A DNA stretch of 64,000 nt from Mya arenaria (lineage: Eukaryota). Shown piece by piece: positions 6,936 to 64,000 of the stretch (position 1 is its first letter; the number at the start of each line of letters is the position of its first letter). The stretch covers positions 48,609,355 through 48,673,354 of the forward strand of contig NC_069133.1 of the NCBI RefSeq assembly GCF_026914265.1, in the 5' to 3' direction. Position numbers and translations under genes: made by a program. The notes under the pieces are model-generated. The model searched no databases, was not told where the DNA came from, and worked only from the letters and a program-made list of their open reading frames with translations.

Positions 6936-7099
6936 CACATATACATATAGATAGTTCCATTTCATGTATTAGTAGTTGTACAATAAATTATCTGTGTAAG
7001 ATCAGTTGCTTTCTCAAATCGAATGCTTTATACACGAATTTAGTTAGCGAGAATATCTCACTAGTGGCATCAGTGCACATTATATTATTGAACAATTGA

Positions 7100-8650
7100 A
7101 AGCTTGAATGAGTGAGCCAGGTAGTCCGGAACAGTTCACGTCGTAAACCATCGTAAGAAGGACAGACCAGAAGAAAGTGGTACTCATCTTCTATTACATT
7201 GTAACCAGTACTCGAGCATAATGGACAGGATCGGATTTCCCGTGCAATATTCTAGTGTCTTCCTTTTTCTATCATATCAAGCGTATGACCTGAGCATCTT
7301 AAGTTTGCAAAACATTTTTTCCAAGGATATGGTAGGTCTATTGACAAATAACGTTCTGGGTCAAGAAGAGTTTTATAGTGTTTATAATGTTCAGCTTTTG
7401 GTGACGACTCAATATTTGCATACAAGTTCTGTATGGAACAGTCTTTCAACCTGTTCGTGAACATTTTCATGAATATGTTTGGTTGACCAACATCTTGCGC
7501 TATCCATGCGTATCCAAAGCCGTGTTCAAATATGATATTTTTAATGTGTGTTACCCAACTACTACGACCAGCATTATCCATATTCAAAAGCATAATGTAA
7601 CACTGACGTGGATATCTATTACTGGTCATGTTCATAATTTTGATCCAATATCTAACACATTTTGGAAGATAAATTGTCAGCATTGGTAGTCTACCACACT
7701 CGCTCAAAGCAAAAAAGTTTGAAACTGTTCTATTTAGCCCACACAGTTTCTTGCAGAAGTTATAATGCACTTTTTCTATGTTCTGGCAGTATTTGTATCC
7801 CCAAATTTCTGACGAGTAACATAAAATTGGCGTTACCATAGAGTCGAATAGTTTAAACGCATCTTTGATATGAAAATGACCAAAATGATTTTGGTAGCGG
7901 AATATAACTGAAATTGCTTTCGTTACCTGTTTTGAAAGATGATCGGTTGTCATAGCCCATCTTAATTTAGGCGTAAAAAATGAGCCGAGGTACATATATG
8001 ATGACACAACTTCAAGTTGTATTTCCCTGTACCACCATCTTTCATAATGCCGCAACGTGCCCCCGTTTCGGAAAACCATTACTTTTGATTTGTCCGTATT
8101 AATGTTCATACCTGTGCTGTCACAGAACCTATCGATAAGGTTAATTTGAGCTTGTAGATTACGGGCTCTATATATATACATGGGTGGTAAAAATAACACA
8201 TACAATTGCATAAGCCATATACAGTTAAAATGTTTTCTAGTTCTTAAGTTTTACACAATATAATTTTACAGGCGGATAGCGGATGCGTATTAAATGGTTA
8301 CTTATTATGGACCCGTGCACAAGAAATACAATTCGTACAAAGGTTCCTGTTTTCGCCTTCGTTTCGTCGCTCCTTCGCCTTCGTATCTTCCTGTCTTCGC
8401 CTTCGTCCCTTCGCTCCTTCGCCATCGTACTTTCCTGTCTTCGCCTTCGTCCCTTCGCTCCTTCGCCTTCGTACTTTCCTGTCTTCGCCTTCGTCCCTTC
8501 GCTCCTTCGCCTTCGTACTTTCCTGTCCTCGCCTTCGTCCCTTCGCGTCTTCGCTCCTTCCAGTAAGGGCGAAGACACGATGGCCCTACCGGTAATCTTT
8601 CTCGCACTCTCTCGGCTCGAACCATACTCACAGTAACGCAGAAATGCATA
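7100..8650 (-). mobile_element. 5'-truncated non-LTR (LINE) retrotransposon fragment: C-terminal part of the reverse transcriptase/ORF2 (ORF 7252..8211 minus strand) plus degenerate upstream region
   Basis: The 319-aa ORF carries LINE RT C-terminal hallmarks: NINTDKSKVMVF, YLGSFF, and a downstream ...LRCSGHTL... region like the LRTGH motif of many LINE ORF2 tails. The upstream RT core domains are absent from the ORF, so the element is truncated or decayed. Confidence 0.6.
8356..8565. repeat. 44-bp tandem repeat x about 4.7 (ccttcgtcccttcgctccttcgccttcgtactttcctgtcttcg)
   Basis: Direct reading. Produces frame-shifting R/E-rich pseudo-ORFs on both strands. Confidence 0.85.
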
Positions 8651-10366: not shown

Positions 10367-13300
10367 GTAATTTGCTTGTATAAATATATGCAATTCTATA
10401 TTATATACTGAGTATACATTTGTACATGTACAACTATTGGTTTCTAATATGTAACATATCCAATAACTACTAGTCGCCCATCAATAGGGCATACTTTTCT
10501 TCTAATTTTAAGGCTTTTCTAAGGGAACATGGAAACAATTTCTAAAGCACTGAAAGTTTCATAAAATCTTTAATCAACATCACTTTAAAGCTGCATTCTC
10601 ACAGATTGAATGTTTTGACAACTTTGTTATTTTTATACCCCCACAAACGAAGTTTGAGCGGGTATATAGGAGTGAGCTTGTCGGTCGGTCGGTTTTCATG
10701 GTTTCCGGACGAGAACTCATGAAAGGCTAGACAGATTTGAAAATTTTTTGGTACACAGGTGTAACATCATGAGATACAGGTCAAGTTCGATATTGGGTCT
10801 GGTGGGGCCAAGGTCAAGGTCACTGTTACTAAAAATAGAAAAACGGTTTCCGGACAATAAATCATGAAAGGCTAGACAGATTTGAAAAATTTTTGGTACA
10901 CAGGTGTAACATCAGAAGATACAGGTCAAGTTCGATATTGGGGCTGGTGGGGCCAAGGTCAAGGTCATTGTTACTAAAAATAGAAAAACGGTTTCCGGAC
11001 GATAACTCATGAAAGGCTAGTTTTTCTTGTCAGCAGTGTAACTTCTAAATTACTCAACAGATTTAAATAAAACAATACATGCATGATAAAAGAAGATGCA
11101 GTGTGCAGTAACCTTGGAGTTATGGCCTCTTTTCAAAGGAATGGTTTGCCATTCCTGTGTCCAGGCGGCATTTGGGGGTATTCGTCACTCCTGTGACAGC
11201 TCTAGTTTGTCTTGGAACAAGCCAATTTTTGGGTAAAAATCTAGGGAAACCAGTTATTTAAGACTGCTGACAAAAATTTAGATCACAGATTTTTATATTT
11301 AAGTTTAAAATTGATGTTTTATGCATTTTTCTTAAACCGTTAGTAACCGTAAAAAATTAATTTTCAAACGGAAATATGAAAATCTGCGATCTGATCTTTT
11401 GTCAGAAATCTTTAATCATTAGTTTGCAGATATTTACGCAAAAATTTGCTCTTTCCAAGACATGAAATAAGAAAGTTGTAAAAATGTTATATCTGTGAGA
11501 GTGCAGCTTTAAGAAGTACATATGCATATAATTTTAACTGTATTTCAATAAAACATTTTTTTTTTTTGGTTCAAGAATTACACAGCTTTTGATATATGTT
11601 GGTTGTCTTGCATAATTAAAATAAAACTGACTTCATCTTAGGATTAGCTGGCTCTCTCCAGTCATCCACACTTTTATCAGGGAGTGTTGGTCAGGACACG
11701 CGAAAACGGAAACCAGATAGCAAGAAATCAGATGTTTGTGAAAAAAAGTCTCGAGACAGCCTCCTGTCTGGCCTCACAGGCAACACATTGCTGGGTAGTA
11801 CTGGTTCAAAGTCTACAATGCTCAGTGAGTAATCATGTGCTGGTGACTATTTGATAGTCATTTTTCATTATGTGTATTTCTCCATTTTTTCCTTAGGGCT
11901 ATTCCAGTTAAACATATGTCCCACCCCAGGACGGCAAAATAAAGAAATTCTGTAGGGGGTAGGTCTTTTTCTTAATTTGCTACTGTAGGGGGTGGTGATA
12001 AGTCCAATTTCGCTTCTATAGGGGGGCGTCATTTTCTTTTTTGCTTTTGACCGTATCTGCTCATTTATATTCACTGCCCGATGGTGAAATACCGTTTTTT
12101 TTTATCCATATAACATATTTTACCGAACGTCGTGTACAGAATTGGTTTGGATACAAATCTTCGCGATATTACGCGTCGGTTCCGCGGTACCGGAAATCAG
12201 AAGAAGTTGCGTCCTTTGACAACAAGATGGCGGAGGCGCCAGAATTTGTAAAGTCGTGACCAACCTACAAAATTGGCTAGAAACCAATAGTTGCGCCGCA
12301 TGTGTGGATACGTTTCGTGGTAAGTATACCAAATTGCAGTGTTCGACACTAACGGGGTCCCGGGATCCCGAGGACACCAGTTTTTCAGGAGGGACACCTG
12401 AACTTCGAAGTCCGGTATTCCGTCGGGACACTTTAAATTTCTGACTGATAAACGCTAAATATCAATAAATAAGTAGCATTTAATTAATTTATTACCTAAA
12501 TTCGGGCTCCCTAAATTTCTTGACAGCACATGTCAAAACAATATTATTAATTATCATTATCGGACTCATCAAAGCCACGGATAGGTCCGTGTCAAAGCGA
12601 AAGTATAGCTGACTATTTGACTATAGTTACGTCATGAATCTATAAATAAACAGGTCATTTCACAGGCGCATGCAGGTTAACGCTTCCGTTTTGTTGTTTA
12701 CATTTTAAACAAGGTCAGAGCTGACAGAGATTTATTATCGGTAAAATACTTATGTGGAATTGTTTTGCTTATGTGTCAGAACCGCCCAAAAAGATGCCAA
12801 CTCTGATGATACCTTTTATATAATATGATGCGACCTTTGAGTATTTACAGTAACATTTACGACACAAAAGAACTGCATCCTACATTCAGCATTCTTTGTT
12901 AATTGGCATTCAACTTATCAATATTCTTTGTTAATTTTAAAGACATATATTTTATGCCTTGATAAAAAATAATAGAAATAAAATTTGCAGGGTTTTATTC
13001 ATTAATTCAATAAATTTATAAAATTTTATGACTTTTTGGCGCGAAAATTAACATGTATACACAATTTTTGGTCGTCTGCTCTTCCAGTATGCACTACGAC
13101 TGTTGGGCAGTCTGATTGATTTATCAACAGCTCTACTAAATATTGATTGGAGTTTTCACAAGCCAGATGTAATATTCCTACAGTTTCTTAATGAAAAGCA
13201 CCGACATTTGACAAGACCCTGAACCATGATGTATTTTATGCGTATTTTCCAAAAATCTAAAAATAGTAACAACATCAAGTTTTTGTTTACATTGTATCCA

Positions 13301-55961: not shown

Positions 55962-56153
55962 TGTTCAAGGTGTGTTAAACCTAAGATTCATGACAGTAGG
56001 AAAGTTGAGTGGTGTGTTGTTATGTGTCTGGAAGGAGTCATTGTTTGTAATCGACCCGTATGTATCGTCCATATTTGTATCTTGTCTCATCGCTGGTTTC
56101 TCCCCTCGTAGATGCTGAATCTGCTTTAAGATGGCTTTGGCTTCTTCCCGTGT
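55962..56153 (-). CDS. CDC23: Last coding exon of the CDC23/APC8-like gene (TREEAKAILKQIQHLRGEKPAMRQDTNMDDTYGSITNNDSFQTHNNTPLNFPTVMNLRFNTP*)
   Basis: Minus-strand ccttttcag acceptor. Open to the stop, within the supplied ORF 55965..56177(-). Confidence 0.55.
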
Positions 56154-56207: not shown

Positions 56208-56520
56208 AGCTCTTGATGTAACATTGGTAGCCCTTAATGTAACATTGGTAGCTCTTGCTAGCTCTTGAAGTAACATTTCTAGCTCTTGATGTAACATTTC
56301 TAGCTCTTGATGTAACATTGCTAGCTCTTGATGTAACATTTCTAGCTCTTGATGTAACATTTCTAGCTCTTGATGTAACATTTCTAGCTCTTGAAGTAAC
56401 ATTTCTAGCTCTTGATGTAACATTTCTAGCTCTTGATGTAACATTTCTAGCTCTTGATGTAACATTTCTAGCTCTTGATGTAACATTGCTAGCTCTTAGT
56501 GCAACATTGTTTGCTATTTA
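56208..56520. repeat. 21-bp tandem repeat x about 14 (TAGCTCTTGATGTAACATTTC) in the last intron of the CDC23-like gene
   Basis: Direct reading. Explains the supplied ORFs 56199..56486(-) and 56255..56644(+). Confidence 0.9.
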
Positions 56521-56834
56521 TACATCATTGATAGCTCTTGATAAAACATTGCTAACTAATTTTGCTATCTATACAGGGCTTGATCATTGCAAGTTCTTAT
56601 TGTGCTTGTTTAATGGTCACTACTTTGTATTATTTACCACCTAAAATCAATCTTTCCAAGTTGAGAAAAACAAACAGCTATAATGTAAATCATTGTAAAG
56701 TATCATTATTCTTCAGATACATACATTTTCATTGCTAATTTTGCTGACAAAAAGCTTGTATCAAATTCTTTAATATGTGTTATGGATTTCTCTATTTATA
56801 ACATTTAAAATGTATGATATAGATAATGAAATAC

Positions 56835-56960
56835 CTCTGTGAACTCAAGACAAGTCTGAGCGGCTTGATAAGCAGCATCCAACATGTTGTTTCTCAGATA
56901 ATAGTTGGCGAGATACTTGTACGCTTCACTCTGGCCCTCGTAACTCTGTGACTTTCCAGG
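56835..56960 (-). CDS. CDC23: Penultimate coding exon of a CDC23/APC8-like TPR protein (PGKSQSYEGQSEAYKYLANYYLRNNMLDAAYQAAQTCLEFTE)
   Basis: Minus-strand ctacag acceptor and GTATTT donor, phase 0 into the last exon. The pattern E.Y..LANYY…LD.A…AQ.CLEF.ETREEAKAILKQI matches my recollection of the CDC23 C-terminus (…FLANH…LEEAE.YCTRLLDY…EKETAKSLLREI). Confidence 0.55.
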
Positions 56961-57470
56961 CTGTAGAATACAGAAGATTGAACATAAACCATAGTAATAT
57001 AATATACTGTAATTTAGATATGTCTCGACAGTATAATATGTGGCGTCTTAGATGTTATTTCTCTGAATACAGTTTGCAAGATACTTGTACAACTCACTCT
57101 AGAGTTGTTCACCTCTGTGTCATTCTGGGCTGTAGAATAAGATTTAACATTATAATTAAAATAACTAAATATATTCTAATCTAAACAAGTTTGTGCAGCC
57201 TTAATTAAATTGTCCAACTTAATGTTTTTCCACAAATAATTAGCGAGGTAGTTGTTTGCTTTACTCTAGCCCTCATCACTCTGGAACATTTTTGGGCTGT
57301 AAGACTCAGAACATTACATAAATAATAATACTGTGGTATAGTCTAGACATGTCTGCGAGACATTGATAGACATTACTCTAAATTTTCACTCTGATCCAAA
57401 TAACTCCGCATCTTTTCCGGCCATTGAAATACAGACAGTTTCACTCTGATTCTTGCACTTTTTAACTGTG
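56835..57470 (-). repeat. About 170-bp tandem array x about 3-4. Copy 1 contains the CDC23 penultimate exon. Upstream copies (about 57040-57140, about 57225-57310 and about 57380-57460) are progressively decayed
   Basis: GATACTTGTACGCTTCACTCTGGCCCTCGTAACTCTG / GATACTTGTACAACTCACTCTAGAGTTGTTCACCTCTG / GGTAGTTGTTTGCTTTACTCTAGCCCTCATCACTCTG, each followed by GGCTGTAGAAT/GGCTGTAAGAC. Confidence 0.75.
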
Positions 57471-58237
57471 AGATATCATAAAATATTTTAAACAAATACT
57501 ACTTGTAAGGTTCAGTATGACGATGAACTTTGTTACTCTGCCAATTAAATATGTTTGAGCATGCATGTACAGTAAAACTGCGGTGGTTCGAACAGGCGGT
57601 GGTTCGAGAACCGGCGGTCCCTCGAGGTCGGAGCTTGGTCCCGAACATTTTTCCTTCTATTTTCATATAAAATATACTGATGCTGCATCGAAACCTAATT
57701 ATGTCAAGGAGTCGAGGACAATAGGGGGTCCCAAATACACAAATCATGCACAAAACCTTATGGCTCCCTCGAGGTCATAATTTCACACTTTATCCCGAAC
57801 GTATGTCCCAAGAAAAAAAAACAATTGCTAGGAGTTTTCGCAAGTTCTAAAAAAAAAAAGACAGTTAAAGGAGATTTGATTAGGTGTGAAAAACGTTCTT
57901 CACTGTTTACGCATTACCAATGATAGTTGATAAGGGCATTTGAGAAGATAATTAATAGTTTTAACAGTTTCGCGAGACAGACAAGATGCGCCAATCGTCA
58001 ATCCTTGAAGTTCTGAATCTTAAATCTGACTAATGCCATAATTTGTACTGTCATATTTAAATGTTGAATGTTTAGAAAATGTGTTTTTCATAAAAAATAA
58101 ACATAAATATTTATTCATCTTTAATTGTTTTTCTTTTACACTTCGTATACGAGGGCCTTTGAACATATGAGCGATTTCCACAACACAACACATAATCGGT
58201 GTCGTAGTAAACAGTCGGTTTGACGACTTAAAAACTT

Positions 58238-61200
58238 GTATTGTAGAAGTTATGGGACTAGCTGGACATGTGTGTGTTGTAGTAGTTATGGGACTAGCTG
58301 GACATACGTGTATTGTAGTAGTTATGAGACTAGCTGGACATACGTGTATTGTAGTAGTTATGGGACTAGCTGGACATACGTGTATTGTAGTAGTTATGGG
58401 ACTAGCTGGACATACGTGTATTGTAGTAGTTATGGGACTAGCTGGACATACGTGTATTGTAGTAGTTATGGGACTAGCTGGACATGTTTGTATTGTAGTA
58501 GTTATGGGACTAGCTGGACATGTGTGTATTGTAGTAGTAGTTATGGGACTAGCTGGACATGTGTGTATTGTAGTAGTTATGAGACTAGCTGGACATGTAT
58601 GTATTGTAGTAGTTATGGGACTAGCTGGACATGTATGTATTGTAGTAGTTATGGGACTAGCTGGACATGTGTGTATTGTAGTAGTTATGGGACTAGCTGG
58701 ACATGTGTGTATTGTAGTAGTTATGGGACTAGCTGGACATGTTTGTATTGTAGTAGTTATGGGACTAACTGGACATGTGTGTATTGTAGAAGTTATGGGA
58801 CTAGCTGGACATGTGTGTATTGTAGTAGTTATGGGCCAGCTGGACATGTGTGTATTGTAGTAGTTATGAGACTAGCTGGACATGTATGTATTGTAGTAGT
58901 TATGGGACTAGCTGGACATGTATGTATTGTAGTAGTTATGGGACTAGCTGGACATGTGTGTATTGTAGTAGTTATGGGACTAGCTGGACATGTGTGTATT
59001 GTAGTAGTTATGGGACTAGCTGGACATGTTTGTATTGTAGTAGTTATGGGACTAACTGGACATGTGTGTATTGTAGCAGTTATGGGACTAACTGGACATG
59101 TGTGTATTGTAGTAGTTATGGGACCAGCTGGACATACGTGTATTGTAGTTGTTATGTGACTAGCTGGTCATGTGTGTATTGTAGTTGTTATGTGACTAGC
59201 TGGACATAAGTGTATTGTAGTTGTTATGTGACTAGCTGGACATGTGTGTATTGTAGTTGTTATGTGACTAGCTGGTCATGTGTGTATTGTAGTTGTTATG
59301 TGACTAGCTGGTCATGTGTGTATTGTAGTTGTTATGTGACTAGCTGGACATGTGTGTATTGTAGTAGTTATGGGACTAGCTGGACATGTGTGTATTGTAG
59401 TTGTTATGTGACTAGCTGGACATGTGTGTATTGTAGTAGTTATGGGACTAGCTGGACATGTGTGTATTGTAGTTGTTATGAGACTAGCTGGACATGTGTG
59501 TATTGTAGTAGTTATGGGACTAGCTGGACATGTGTGTATTGTAGTTGTTATGTGACTAGCTGGACATGTGTGTATTGTAGTAGTTATGGGACTAGCTGGA
59601 CATGTGTGTATTGTAGTAGTTATGGGACTAGCTGGACATGTGTGTATTGTAGTTGTTATGTGACTAGCTGGACATGTGTGTATTGTAGTAGTTATGGGAC
59701 TAGCTGGACATGTGTGTATTGTAGTAGTTATGGGACTAGCTGGACATGTGTGTATTGTAGTAGTTATGGGACTAGCTGGACATGTGTGTATTGTATTTGT
59801 TATGTGACTAGCTGGACATGTGTGTATTGTAGTAGTTATGGGACTAGCTGGACATGTGTGTATTGTAGTAGTTATGGGACTAGCTGGACATGTGTATATT
59901 GTAGTAGTTATGGGACTAGCTGGACATGTGTGTATTGTAGTAGTTATGGGACTAGCTGGACATGTATGTATTGTAGTGGTTATGGGACTAGCTGGTCATG
60001 TATGTATTGTAGTAGTTATGGGACTAGCTGGTCATGTATGTATTGTAGTAGTTATGGGACTAGCTGGTCATGTGTGTATTGTAGTAGTTATGGGACTAGC
60101 TGGTCATGTATGTATTGTAGTAGTTATGGGACTAGCTGGTCATGTATGTATTGTAGTAGTTATGAGACTAGCTGGACATGTGTGTATTGTAGTAGTTATG
60201 AGACTAGCTGGACATGTGTGTATTGTAGTAGTTATGAGACTAGCTGGTCATGTATGTATTGTAGTAGTTATGGGACTACTGGTCATGTATGTATTGTAGT
60301 AGTTATGGGACTATCTGGTCATGTATGTATTGTAGTAGTTATGGGACTAGCTGGACATACGTGTATTGTAGTAGTTATGGGACTAGCTGGACATACGTGT
60401 ATTGTAGTAGTTATGGGACTAGCTGGACATACGTGTATTGTAGTAGTTATGGGACTAGCTGGTCATGTGTGTATTGTAGTAGTTATGGGACTAGCTAGAC
60501 ATGTGTGTATTGTAGTAGTTATGGGACTAGCTGGACATGTGTGTTTTGTAGTAGTTATGGGACTAGCTGGACATGTGTGTATTGTAGTAGTTATGGGACT
60601 AGCTGGTCATGTGTGTATTGTAGTAGTTATGAGACTAGCTGGACATGTGTGTATTGTAGAAGTTATGTGACTAGCTGGACATGTATGTATTGTAGTAGTT
60701 ATGTGACTAGCTTGACATGTGTGTATTGTAGTAGTTATGTGACTAGCTGGACATGTGTGTATTGTAGTAGTTATGGGACTAGCTGGACATACGTGTATTG
60801 TAGTAGTTATGGGACCAGCTGGACATGTGTGTATTGTAGTAGTTATGGGACTAGCTGGACATGTGTGTATTGTAGTAGTTATGGGACTAGCTGGACATGT
60901 GTGTATTGTAGTAGTTATGGGACTAGCTGGACATGTATGTATTGTAGTAGTTATGAGACTAGCTGGACATGTATGTATTGTAGTAGTTATGGGACGAGCT
61001 GGACATGTGTGTATTGTAGTAGGACTAGCTGGACATGTATGTATTGTAGTAGTTATGAGACTAGCTGGACATGTGTGTATTGTAGTAGTTATGAGACTAG
61101 CTGGACATGCGTGTATTGTAGTAGTTATGGGACTAGCTGGACATGTGTGTATTGTAGTAGTTATGGGACTAGCTGGACATGTGTGTATTGTAGTAGTTAT

Positions 61201-63836
61201 GGGACTAGCTGGACATGTGTGTATTGTAGTAGTTATGGGACTAGCTGGACATGTATGTATTGTAGTAGTTATGAGACTAGCTGGACATGTATGTATTGTA
61301 GTAGTTATGGGACGAGCTGGACATGTGTGTATTGTAGTAGGACTAGCTGGACATGTATGTATTGTAGTAGTTATGAGACTAGCTGGACATGTGGGTATTG
61401 TAGTAGTTATGAGACTAGCTGGACATGCGTGTATTGTAGTAGTTATGGGACTAGCTGGACATGTGTGTATTGTAGTAGTTATGGGACTAGCTGGTCATGT
61501 ATGTATTGTAGTAGTTATGGGACTAGCTGGTCATGTATGTATTGTAGTAGTTATGGGACTAGCTGGTCATGTGTGTATTGTAGTAGTTATGGGACTAGCT
61601 GGACATGTGTGTATTGTAGTAATTATGGGACTAGCTGGTCATGTGTGAATTGTAGTAGTTATGGGACTAGCTGGACATACGTGTATTGTAGTAGTTACGG
61701 GACTAGCTGGTCATGTGTGTATTGTAGTAGTTATGAGACTAGCTGGACATGTGTGTATTGTAGTAGTTATGGGACTAGCTGGACATGTGTGTATTGTAGT
61801 AGTTATGGGACTAGCTGGACATGTGTGTATTGTAGTAGTTATGGGACTAGCTGGACATGTGTGTATTGTAGTAGTTATGGGACTATCTGGTCATGTGTGT
61901 ATTGTAGTAGTTATGTGACTATCTGGACATGTATGTATTGTAGTAGTTATGGGACTAGCTGGACATGTGTGTATTGTAGTTGTTATGTGACTAGCTGGAC
62001 ATGTTTGTATTGTAGTAGTTATGGGACCAGCTGGACATGTATGTATTGTAGTAGTTATGGGACTAGCTGGTCATGTGTGTATTGTAGTAGTTATGAGACT
62101 AGCTGGACATGTGTGTATTGTAGTAGTTATGGGACTAGCTGGACATGTGTGTATTGTAGTAGTTATGGGACTAGCTGGACATGTGTGTATTGTAGTAGTT
62201 ATGGGACTAGCTGGACATGTGTGTATTGTAGTAGTTATGGGACTATCTGGTCATGTGTGTATTGTAGTAGTTATGTGACTATCTGGACATGTATGTATTG
62301 TAGTAGTTATGGGACTAGCTGGACATGTGTGTATTGTAGTTGTTATGTGACTAGCTGGACATGTTTGTATTGTAGTAGTTATGGGACCAGCTGGACATGT
62401 ATGTATTGTAGTAGTTATGGGACTAGCTGGTCATGTGTGTATTGTAGTAGTTATGAGACTAGCTGGACATGTGTGTATTGTAGAAGTTATGTGACTAGCT
62501 GGACATGTGTGTATTGTAGTAGTTATGAGACTAGCTGGACATGTGTGTATTGTAGAAGTTATGTGACTAGCTGGACATGTGTGTATTGTAGTAGTTATGG
62601 GACTAGCTGGTCATGTGTGTATTGTAGTAGTTATGAGACTAGCTGGACATGTGTGTATTGTAGTAGTTATGAGACTAGCTGGACATGTGTGTATTGTAGA
62701 AGTTATGTGACTAGCTGGACATGTGTGTATTGTAGTAGTTATGGGACTAGCTGGACATGTGTGTATTGTAGTAGTTATGAGACTAGCTGGACATGTGTGT
62801 ATTGTAGAAGTTATGTGACTAGCTGGACATGTGTGTATTGTAGTAGTTATGGGACTAGCTGGTCATGTGTGTATTGTAGTAGTTATGGGACTAGCTGGAC
62901 ATAGCTGGACATACGTGTATTGTAGTTGTTATGGGACTAGCTGGTCATGTATGTATTGTAGTAGTTATGGGACTAGCTGGACATGTGTGTATTGTAGTAG
63001 TTATGGGACTAGCTGGTCATGTATGTATTGTAGTAGTTATGGGACTAGCTGGCCATGTATGTATTGTAGTAGTTATGGGACTAGCTGGACATGTGTGTAT
63101 TGTAGTAGTTATGGGACTAGCTGGTCATGTATGTATTGTAGTAGTTATGGGACTAGCTGGTCATGTATGTATTGTAGTAGTTATGGGACTAGCTGGTCAT
63201 GTATGTATTGTAGTAGTTATGGGACTAGCTGGTCATGTATGTATTGTAGTAGTTATGGGACTAGCTGGTCATGTATGTATTGTAGTAGTTATGGGACTAG
63301 CTGGTCATGTATGTATTGTAGTAGTTATGGGACAGCTGGTCATGTATGTATTGTAGTAGTTATGGGACAGCTGGTCATGTATGTATTGTAGTAGTTATGG
63401 GACTAGCTGGTCATGTATGTATTGTAGTAGTTATGGGACTAGCTGGTCATGTGTGTATTGTAGTAGTTATGGGACTAGCTAGACATGTGTGTATTGTAGT
63501 AGTTATGAGACTAGCTGGACATGTGTGTATTGTAGTAGTTATGGGACTAGCTGGTCATGTGTGTATTGTAGTAGTTATGGGACTAGCTGGACATGTGTGC
63601 ATTGTAGTAGTTATGGGACTAGCTGGACATGTCTGTATTGTAGTAGTTATGGGACTAGCTGGACATGTGTGTATTGTAGTAGTTATGGGACTAGCTGGAC
63701 ATGTTTGTATTGTAGTAGTTATGGGACTAAATGGACATGTGTGTATTGTAGTAGTTATGGGACTAGCTGGACATGTGTGTATTGAGTAGTTATGGGACTA
63801 GCTGGACATGTGTGTATTGTGGTATTTATGGGACTA
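58238..63836. repeat. Satellite DNA: 36-bp unit (TGTAGTAGTTATGGGACTAGCTGGACATGTGTGTAT) x about 155, about 5.6 kb, with variant subfamilies and local higher-order repeats of about 310-360 bp
   Basis: Direct reading. Identical 85-aa pseudo-ORFs 360 bp apart (61661 versus 62021). The repeated block 60990-61130 versus 61310-61450. Runs of a GTTGTTATGTGACTAGCTGGTCATG variant at 59150-59350 and of TCATGTATGTATT variants at 62950-63450. Confidence 0.95.
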
Positions 63837-64000
63837 TTTTAAAATTGGGCCAGCAGATTCTGAGGAGAGCATTTTCAAAGTTTTCCAAACAGACAAATAG
63901 TAAAAAGTAGCCGTAACCCCCTGGAAGCCCTCTTTTTACAAGTCAATATAAGATGTAGAACTTCAGATAGAGGGTCATTTCTGAGATATTATTAAACAAG

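Follow-up and report, generated by a model that had tools for sequence, protein, structure and literature searches.

Minisatellite/VNTR arrays consist of units of roughly 10-100 bp, extend over 0.5-30 kb and are often intronic or subtelomeric, and tandem arrays of such kind are common in eukaryotic introns. In minisatellites, unequal exchange and gene conversion classically leave maps of clustered variants together with duplicated blocks, and VNTRs are usually defined by copy-number polymorphism between individuals. Long tandem arrays are also frequent sites of misassembly. In a second group of systems, tandem repeats are carried by mobile elements or dispersed among genes. According to PMC10048060, oyster Helitrons contain up to ~90 tandem monomers, and Helitron-borne repeats can seed satellites; in PMC4537270, dispersed tandem repeats near genes are reported to modulate expression in some species.

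Here we characterize a non-coding array of the minisatellite type (36 bp, about 155 copies, 5.6 kb) within a 64-kb window, i.e. the whole stretch of DNA that was analysed. In our main reading, to which we assign a probability of about 80%, the array is located in an intron of a minus-strand homologue of CDC23 (APC8), upstream of the penultimate exon. The coordinates of all features are listed in Table 1.

Table 1. Features of the 36-bp array and of the adjacent CDC23 (APC8) homologue (positions in the window)
Feature	Position	Strand	Basis or details
36-bp tandem array	58237..63836	.	TRF, composition, unit list, wrap-around alignment
Subfamily run of CATACGTG	58277-58456		
Internal duplication, 287-bp period (7 full units and one 35-nt unit), about 2 copies	58551..59076	.	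239 bp at 100%
Subfamily run of GTTGTTATGTGAC / GTAGTTGTTATGTGAC, 6 units	59143..59358	.	unit list
Internal duplication, 318-bp period (8 full units and one 30-nt unit), about 2 copies	60817..61494	.	259 bp at 100%, then one mismatch in the next ~100 bp
Internal duplication, 360-bp period (10 units), about 2.2 copies	61699..62483	.	100% over 425 bp versus about 94% at other multiples of 36
72-bp dimer zone, ATGAGAC unit alternating with GTAGAAGTTATGTGAC unit	62442..62837	.	unit list; variant string CJCJDCCJACJD
Subfamily run of GGTCATGTATG, 9 units	63100..63421	.	unit list, wrap-around alignment
Last coding exon, CDC23 homologue (TREEAKAILKQIQHLRGEKP...RFNTP and stop codon)	55965..56153	-	
Penultimate coding exon, CDC23 (APC8) homologue, 42 codons (PGKSQSYEGQSEAYKYLANYYLRNNMLDAAYQAAQTCLEFTE)	56835..56960	-	AG at 56961-56962, GT at 56833-56834
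Two decayed pseudo-copies of the penultimate CDC23 exon, with in-frame stops	57052..57290	-	between the real exon and the array; blastn self-match 74% over 103 nt, tblastn, direct reading

Organization of the tandem array

Tandem Repeats Finder describes the locus as a single tandem array with a period of 36, 155.7 copies, 94% matches, 1% indels and a score of 9529. The units are arranged head-to-tail over 5600 bp at one discrete locus. By wrap-around alignment the array was resolved into 155 full units and two partial end units of the consensus TTGTAGTAGTTATGGGACTAGCTGGACATGTGTGTA, with a mean identity to the consensus of 95.8% and 44 distinct ungapped variants, while the anchor spacings are exactly 36 in 113 of 132 cases. 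Both methods agree with the original prediction of a ~155-unit, 36-bp array of 5.6 kb, and its estimates of the distance to the nearest CDC23-like exon (~1.2 kb) and of the sequence left in the window past the array (~160 bp) correspond to measured values of 1276 bp and 164 bp. The plus strand of the array is G/T-rich, with a GC skew of about +0.5. The edges are sharp, the flanks contain no decayed units, and the remaining 58 kb of the window contain none of the unit's 12-, 14- or 16-mers. The array is an ordinary non-coding repeat array in which nothing unusual was found.

The variant units are clustered, as had been proposed from the runs visible in the sequence: identical non-consensus units stand side by side in 15 pairs, compared with 3.6 +/- 1.8 pairs (maximum 11) in 5000 shuffles of the unit order. 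In the run of GGTCATGTATG units, two neighbouring 35-nt units share an identical 1-nt deletion. Units carrying the ATGAGAC variant are scattered and are also found in dimers. The A26->T variant is present in 37 units and the G15->T variant in 21 units, and for each of the site pairs 26/32, 15/26 and 15/32 all four combinations were observed. Because these three common variable sites coexist in all combinations, either recombination or gene conversion has shuffled the variants, or they arose repeatedly.

Three multi-unit blocks are duplicated exactly within the array: 425 bp at lag 360 (61699-62123 and 62059-62483), 259 bp at lag 318 (60817-61075 and 61135-61393), and 239 bp at lag 287 (58551-58789 and 58838-59076). 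The copies are 100% identical, whereas neighbouring monomers are about 94% alike and other lags give about 94% or less. The longest informative runs comprise 11, 6 and 6 units, versus a mean of 1.0 and a maximum of 5 in 500 shuffles of the unit order. Blocks repeating at 360 bp and at about 310-325 bp had been predicted, and they correspond to the first two of these duplications; the third had been missed. These blocks had also been termed higher-order repeats. The term captures the fact that, at all three lags, block copies are more alike than adjacent monomers, but it fails in that no multimer is propagated many times along the array: each block is present in about 2.0-2.2 copies, and the three differ in period (287, 318 and 360 bp) and in unit composition. 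The blocks are single recent segmental duplications, most likely resulting from out-of-register exchange, and do not constitute an established higher-order repeat. The predicted origin by unequal crossover is retained, out-of-register exchange being the best explanation of the multi-unit blocks. In principle, the 100% identity of the blocks could also be an artefact of assembly or polishing.

Genomic context and proposed origin of the array

The two exons adjoining the array, when spliced, encode 103 amino acids that match residues 508-566 of the 597 residues of human CDC23 (E = 1.1e-9 in a PDB search), and this match is significant and collinear with the CDC23 C-terminus, confirming the neighbour named in the original prediction. 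The tblastn search with a human CDC23 query and the independent PDB search agree on the matched region. Pfam matches of the encoded protein to TPR/ANAPC3 are weak and sub-threshold. In the protein database only metagenome fragments were matched, P0001 and P0002 for CDC23, and the penultimate exon has 73-77% nucleotide identity in two metagenome contigs. The source organism is a eukaryote whose DNA has ~35% GC and contains spliceosomal introns. The neighbouring TEP1-like gene, whose match in the protein database is the metagenome fragment P0006 (82% identity), ends about 9 kb from the array.

Exons encoding CDC23 residues 1 to about 507 were found by tblastn nowhere in the 64-kb window, which does not contain a full-length CDC23 with its N-terminal ANAPC8 domain and TPR array; these exons presumably lie beyond position 64000. 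Between the penultimate exon and the array, tblastn and Pfam revealed no further CDC23 exons, the two decayed duplicates of the penultimate exon being the only related sequences, and the minus strand at 57.0-58.24 kb contains no TPR-like open segments. The interval of 57.5-58.2 kb, where CDC23 exons would have spoken against an intronic array, is among those free of such exons. The array had been placed either inside a CDC23 intron or just upstream of the gene. Since the adjacent exon is the penultimate one of a minus-strand gene, the upstream position is excluded; since the window lacks coding sequence for residues 1 to about 507, an intact gene would have the array in an intron. The intron upstream of the penultimate exon is, on that condition, the most likely location. 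The position of the array among genic exons, those of CDC23 with the TEP1-like neighbour close by, would argue for euchromatin. In the relative L001, the homologous CDC23 intron is occupied by a different, unrelated array (43 bp x 7.9), so tandem arrays arise repeatedly in this intron. Kinship with that 43-bp array, as well as with the arrays of 36 bp at 42342, 21 bp at 56258 and 44 bp at 8344 elsewhere in the window, was rejected, as the alignment scores were not above those of shuffles.

We propose that the array is a self-propagating by-product of replication and recombination, in which: i) new unit variants would be created by point mutation and small indels; ii) subfamily runs would result from their local spread by slippage and unequal exchange between sister chromatids or homologues; and iii) the exact duplications of 287-360 bp would stem from occasional exchanges 8-10 units out of register. 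For the host gene the array would mainly mean 5.6 kb of extra intron. The only donor-like sites of a unit on the transcribed (C/A-rich) strand are weak GTCC ones, and therefore the array should be spliced out without new exons. We assume that the array is neutral, with no sequence-specific function detectable in it.

Alternative explanations and implications

The alternative that survives best, although we regard it as unlikely, is that the array represents one locus of a genome-wide satellite, or the central module of tandem repeats in a Helitron/Helentron- or MITE-type transposable element, which was inserted in the CDC23 intron and then expanded. The original prediction had called the array a satellite, a name that would presuppose an abundant family with many loci. 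Tandem repeats in Helitron-type elements and their growth into satellites are documented in PMC10048060, other tandem arrays are numerous in the window, and the sharp edges and flanks free of decayed units are such as an insertion would give. The motif TTAAAA found within 10 nt of both junctions hints weakly at a target-site duplication, but a 6-mer common to AT-rich flanks can easily occur by chance. Furthermore, neither the unit nor either flank is repeated elsewhere in the 64-kb window, the flanks share no terminal inverted repeats, and nothing matching the unit was found in the sequence collections searched, all of which lie outside the source genome, or in the literature. Specifically, two-unit and one-unit patterns gave 0 matches in metagenome contigs, the unit gave 0 matches in prokaryote genomes and viral contigs, and four of its 14-16-mers had 0 occurrences in the literature searched. 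Element termini, hairpins, inverted repeats and conserved flanking modules were likewise absent from the one 64-kb window, in which the right flank spans 164 bp. Within this sampled sequence, three observations speak against an association with a transposable element: the flanks are not repeated in the window, they are not linked by inverted repeats, and decayed units are missing past the edges. A satellite or transposable-element origin would account for how the array came about and is in itself compatible with a non-coding, intronic array.

Less probable again is the possibility that the two CDC23 exons belong to a 3' fragment or a partial duplicate of the gene, in which case the array would be intergenic or would mark an assembly join. 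The window contains only the last ~90 CDC23 codons, the two decayed copies of the penultimate exon point to local duplication activity in the same intron region, and arrays of this length are prone to the assembly errors mentioned above. However, direct reading showed that both exons have intact frames bounded by canonical AG/GT splice sites and a proper stop codon. They are moreover conserved at the protein level in contigs from two other organisms, and the gene and its TEP1-like neighbour are arranged tail-to-tail in what is otherwise an ordinary genic region.

The 36-mer might be a species-wide dispersed or chromosome-structural (e.g. centromere-associated) satellite, with its 5.6-kb copy in an intron of CDC23, which encodes an essential APC/C subunit, serving as a source of local chromatin or small-RNA effects that modulate CDC23 expression, by analogy with the proposal made for TCAST1 near genes of Tribolium; we give this scenario very little weight.

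A protein-coding tandem-repeat exon, either Thr/Pro/Ser-rich and mucin-like (HTCPASPITTTI, minus strand) or Cys-rich (CSSYGTSWTCVY, plus strand), is effectively refuted by the stop counts, the frame-breaking indels, the codon-position pattern and the lack of homologues. The unit length is divisible by 3, the consensus is stop-free in three of six frames, open stretches reach 801 amino acids (295 on the minus strand), the array yields ORFs of up to 799 amino acids with prokaryote-style ORF finders, and the sites that vary most are third codon positions in the minus frame; but three open frames are the commonest outcome for shuffled units (1820 of 5000), and every genomic frame of the array contains 97-230 stop codons. 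The A26->T variant changes TGT to TGA in the sole minus-strand frame open in the consensus, and G15->T creates TGA in the +B frame. Of seven independent indel events, five disrupt the frame; indels of -1 and +10 interrupt the +A frame, where the variation at first, second and third codon positions amounts to 91, 72 and 31. The uninterrupted reading frame expected of a mucin-like PTS repeat does not run across the array, and a translated stretch of 432 amino acids had no homologue among 5.8 billion proteins. A structured RNA or hairpin-forming DNA was also rejected: folding energies were no better than those of shuffles (z of +0.55 for DNA of the plus strand and +0.54 for RNA of the minus strand), indicating no unusual secondary structure, and no Rfam families or tRNAs were found in the entire window.

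Given a non-coding minisatellite-type array in a CDC23 intron, the significance of the locus is little beyond annotation. The region 58237-63836 should be masked as a tandem repeat without a gene call, and the CDC23 gene model should span it as an intron. The three perfect internal duplications illustrate very recent out-of-register exchange cleanly and on a small scale, and they would make the locus a useful hypervariable marker in any population-level study of the species. If the unit proves abundant genome-wide, it would be a further case of a satellite within an intron of an essential gene.

Comparison with known repeat systems

Helitron/Helentron elements and MITEs of bivalves and insects resemble the array in their internal stretches of short tandem units, from which satellites can develop (PMC10048060). 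The array differs from them by the absence of element termini, hairpins, inverted repeats and conserved flanking modules in the sequence sampled, and its ~155 copies exceed the ~10-90 quoted for such elements. Dispersed euchromatic satellites, such as the TCAST-like repeats of Tribolium castaneum, the Drosophila 1.688 repeats and the oyster satellitome, are tandem arrays in gene-rich euchromatin and in introns (PMC5844308, PMC3411249 and PMC10048060), a setting that the present array probably shares. These families are defined by many dispersed copies, found usually as short arrays and often linked to transposable elements, whereas here one locus of 155 units is visible, with no transposable-element module in the sampled flanks.

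Satellites with higher-order repeats, exemplified by primate alpha satellite, are similar in that monomers about 94% alike are combined into multi-monomer blocks that are 100% alike. The difference lies in the copy number of the blocks (about 2 each here versus tens to thousands in a true higher-order repeat), in the unequal periods and compositions of the three blocks, and in the setting, which is 5.6 kb within a gene as opposed to megabase heterochromatin. The unit is not G-rich in the manner of many hypervariable vertebrate minisatellites, and the array is represented by one haplotype sequence. Minisatellites/VNTRs are nevertheless its closest counterpart: a 36-bp unit repeated head-to-tail in a discrete, non-coding 5.6-kb array falls within the ranges of unit size and array length given for this class, and the interspersed variants and the genic, probably intronic setting likewise fit it.

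Unit structure and subfamily organization of the array

A single tandem array was identified by Tandem Repeats Finder at 58237-63836 (period 36, 155.7 copies, 94% matches, 1% indels, score 9529), which confirms the ~155 units of the original prediction; the unit and both junctions were also seen on direct reading of the sequence. When aligned to the consensus TTGTAGTAGTTATGGGACTAGCTGGACATGTGTGTA in wrap-around mode, the array resolves into 155 full units plus two partial ones at its ends, with a mean identity to the consensus of 95.8% and pairwise identities of 92-94% that fall only slightly with distance. The ungapped units comprise 44 distinct variants, the exact consensus occurring 38 times, and most of the variation is held by positions 15 (G/A/T), 26 (A/T), 32 (G/A/T), 8, 30-31, 7, 19 and 21. 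The plus strand is strongly G/T-rich (GC skew ~+0.5), and every unit contains the palindromes ACATGT and CTAG/AGCT and the 12-nt tract ACATGTGTGTAT, a perfectly alternating purine-pyrimidine, (TG)n-like motif. No 12-16-mers of the unit were found outside the array within the window.

Variant units cluster along the array, as had been claimed: 15 pairs of adjacent identical non-consensus units were counted versus 3.6 ± 1.8 (maximum 11) in 5000 shuffles of the unit order. The predicted higher-order blocks of 360 and ~310-325 bp are present as exact duplicates at lags (the distances at which a multi-unit block recurs) of 360 and 318 bp, and a third pair at a lag of 287 bp adds to these two. The informative runs in the three blocks span 11, 6 and 6 units, whereas shuffled unit orders never exceed five. 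Each block has only ~2 copies, and the three are unlike in period and content. The identity signature of higher-order repeats is present and their propagation is absent; the blocks are independent, very recent segmental duplications within the array. At sites 26/32 the common variants are found in every one of the four possible combinations, as they are at 15/26 and 15/32, which points to recurrent mutation or to the mixing of variants by recombination or gene conversion.

Features of the array, its reading frames and the surrounding window
Feature	Coordinates	Strand	Details
Tandem repeat	8344-8554		44 bp × 4.8
Tandem repeat	10700-11020		145 bp × 2.2
TEP1-like gene	~15600-49000	+	large, multi-exon; DUF4062 (PF13271) and many WD40-like exons
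Tandem repeat	29936-30162		95 bp × 2.4
Tandem repeat	43525-44068		151 bp × 3.6
CDC23 last coding exon	55965-56153	minus	follows the 56835-56960 exon
CDC23-like exon	56835-56960	minus	AG 56961-56962, GT 56833-56834
Subfamily runs	58277-58456 and 60330-60437		CATACGTG
Subfamily run	59143-59358		GTAGTTGTTATGTGAC
Subfamily run	63100-63421		GGTCATGTATG
72-bp dimers	62442-62837		
Duplicated block, lag 287 bp	58551-58789 = 58838-59076		239 bp, 100%
Duplicated block, lag 318 bp	60817-61075 = 61135-61393		259 bp, 100%; a single mismatch over the following ~100 bp
Duplicated block, lag 360 bp	61699-62123 = 62059-62483		425 bp, 100%
Stop-free frame of the unit		+A	CSSYGTSWTCVY
Stop-free frame of the unit		+B	VVVMGLAGHVCI
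Stop-free frame of the unit		minus	HTCPASPITTTI; mucin-like look

Placement relative to CDC23 and neighboring repeats

The two exons to the left of the array, once spliced, encode 103 residues with a match to the human CDC23 chains of APC/C structures (E = 1.1e-9, residues 508-566 of 597), and TPR/ANAPC3 matches in Pfam are sub-threshold only. This position in the protein identifies the pair as the last two coding exons of CDC23 (APC8), and therefore the remainder of the gene must sit at larger coordinates, in the direction of the array. The array had been predicted to lie inside a CDC23 intron or just upstream of the gene; the latter is excluded by the minus-strand 3' exons, and the former probably applies, with an intron of at least 7 kb, unless the two exons represent a gene fragment. 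Since no more than 164 bp of the window lie beyond the array, we infer the intronic placement rather than observe it. CDC23 exons at 57.5-58.2 kb, named beforehand as evidence against it, were looked for with tblastn and Pfam and none was found: a human CDC23 sequence, used solely as a probe, revealed no exon in the whole window beyond the two mapped ones, and minus-strand open segments at 57.0-58.24 kb gave no TPR-like Pfam signal.

In the stretch from the real exon to the array, the only CDC23-related sequence consists of two decayed tandem duplicates of the penultimate exon (~57052-57131 and 57185-57290, minus strand), both with in-frame stops and one including the acceptor region. The same intervening segment has a GC-rich patch, ggtggttcga...ggcggtccctcgaggtc, at 57575-57640, with an A-run ~170 bp downstream (57812-57822); this may be a SINE-like insertion, and ARAGORN and Rfam returned nothing for the patch. 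The last CDC23 intron, which separates the two mapped exons, contains a 21-bp × 14 array (56258-56554, 91% matches) that is open in several frames, e.g. as LHQELEM repeats.

The same CDC23 exon is present, at 73-77% nucleotide identity, in two short metagenome contigs of related organisms. In one of these contigs, L001, a 43-bp × 7.9 array (598-937) with a unit unrelated to the 36-mer lies in the homologous intron, 87 nt upstream of the exon; the CDC23 intron has therefore gained tandem arrays more than once.

The whole window is unusually rich in tandem arrays. CDC23 is arranged tail-to-tail with a TEP1-like gene, some database relatives of which carry the name 'telomerase protein component 1' (TEP1). 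Another 36-bp array, not related to the main one (42342-43155, plus strand, 22.5 copies, 87% matches), starts where one of this gene's WD40-coding exons has its 3' end, or just ahead of that point. Each of its units has a donor-like AAG|GTGGGTAC, making ~22 consecutive potential 5' splice sites, apparently through tandem amplification of the exon-intron junction. At 6991-8250 (minus strand), stop-free segments of 332 and 87 aa resemble, by eye, the C-terminal portion of ORF2 from a non-LTR retrotransposon, with a Cys/His motif (CPLC...H...CP) at the end.

Origin, coding potential and occurrence elsewhere

The array edges are sharp, and flanking segments show no better fit to the consensus than shuffles do. 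Both junctions contain TTAAAA, which is regarded as chance. The array may be derived from internal repeats of a transposable element, as in Helitron-type elements, whose internal tandem repeats are described in PMC10048060, but its flanks have no further copies within the window and no inverted repeats were found linking the two, the right flank being 164 bp.

A coding role could be suggested by a unit length that is a multiple of three, a consensus stop-free in three of six frames, and ORFs of up to 799 aa in a bacterial-style ORF list. This reading fails, because three open frames are the commonest outcome among shuffled units (1820 of 5000), stops number 97-230 across the array in every genomic frame, ~5 of 7 independent indel events shift the frame, variation in the +A frame falls chiefly on codon positions one and two, and a 432-aa translated stretch has no homologue among 5.8 billion proteins. 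TGA arises in the minus frame through the common variant A26->T (37 units) and in +B through G15->T (21 units), and indels of -1 and +10 break +A. Folded as DNA (plus strand) or RNA (minus strand), three units are no stabler than shuffles (z ~+0.5), with no consequence of the alternating tract and palindromes detectable by folding; Rfam and ARAGORN gave no matches over the whole window.

The exact unit is absent from metagenome contigs (two-unit and one-unit patterns), prokaryote genomes (one per species) and viral contigs, collections that do not include the source genome. Its sequence has no exact match in the full text of about 8 million papers and appears to be previously undescribed.

Proposed mechanism and comparison with known systems

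We conclude that the array is of non-coding minisatellite type and is neutral or nearly so. Replication slippage, unequal exchange and gene conversion would maintain and reshape it, and it would be transcribed passively within a CDC23 intron. Alternating purine-pyrimidine tracts generally favor slippage and recombination, and the ACATGTGTGTAT tract in each unit may act in this way, judging from its sequence. On the transcribed strand, direct reading finds GT dinucleotides only in the GTCC context, making them poor splice donors, which is consistent with tolerance of the array in an essential gene.

Among known systems, the array differs from coding tandem repeats in failing the coding test, and it shares with higher-order-repeat satellites their identity signature without their propagation. 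It agrees with minisatellite/VNTR-type arrays in all features that could be tested. Tandem arrays in euchromatin and introns are well documented (PMC5844308, PMC3411249, PMC10048060). The kind of array is thus already known, and its unit sequence appears to be new.
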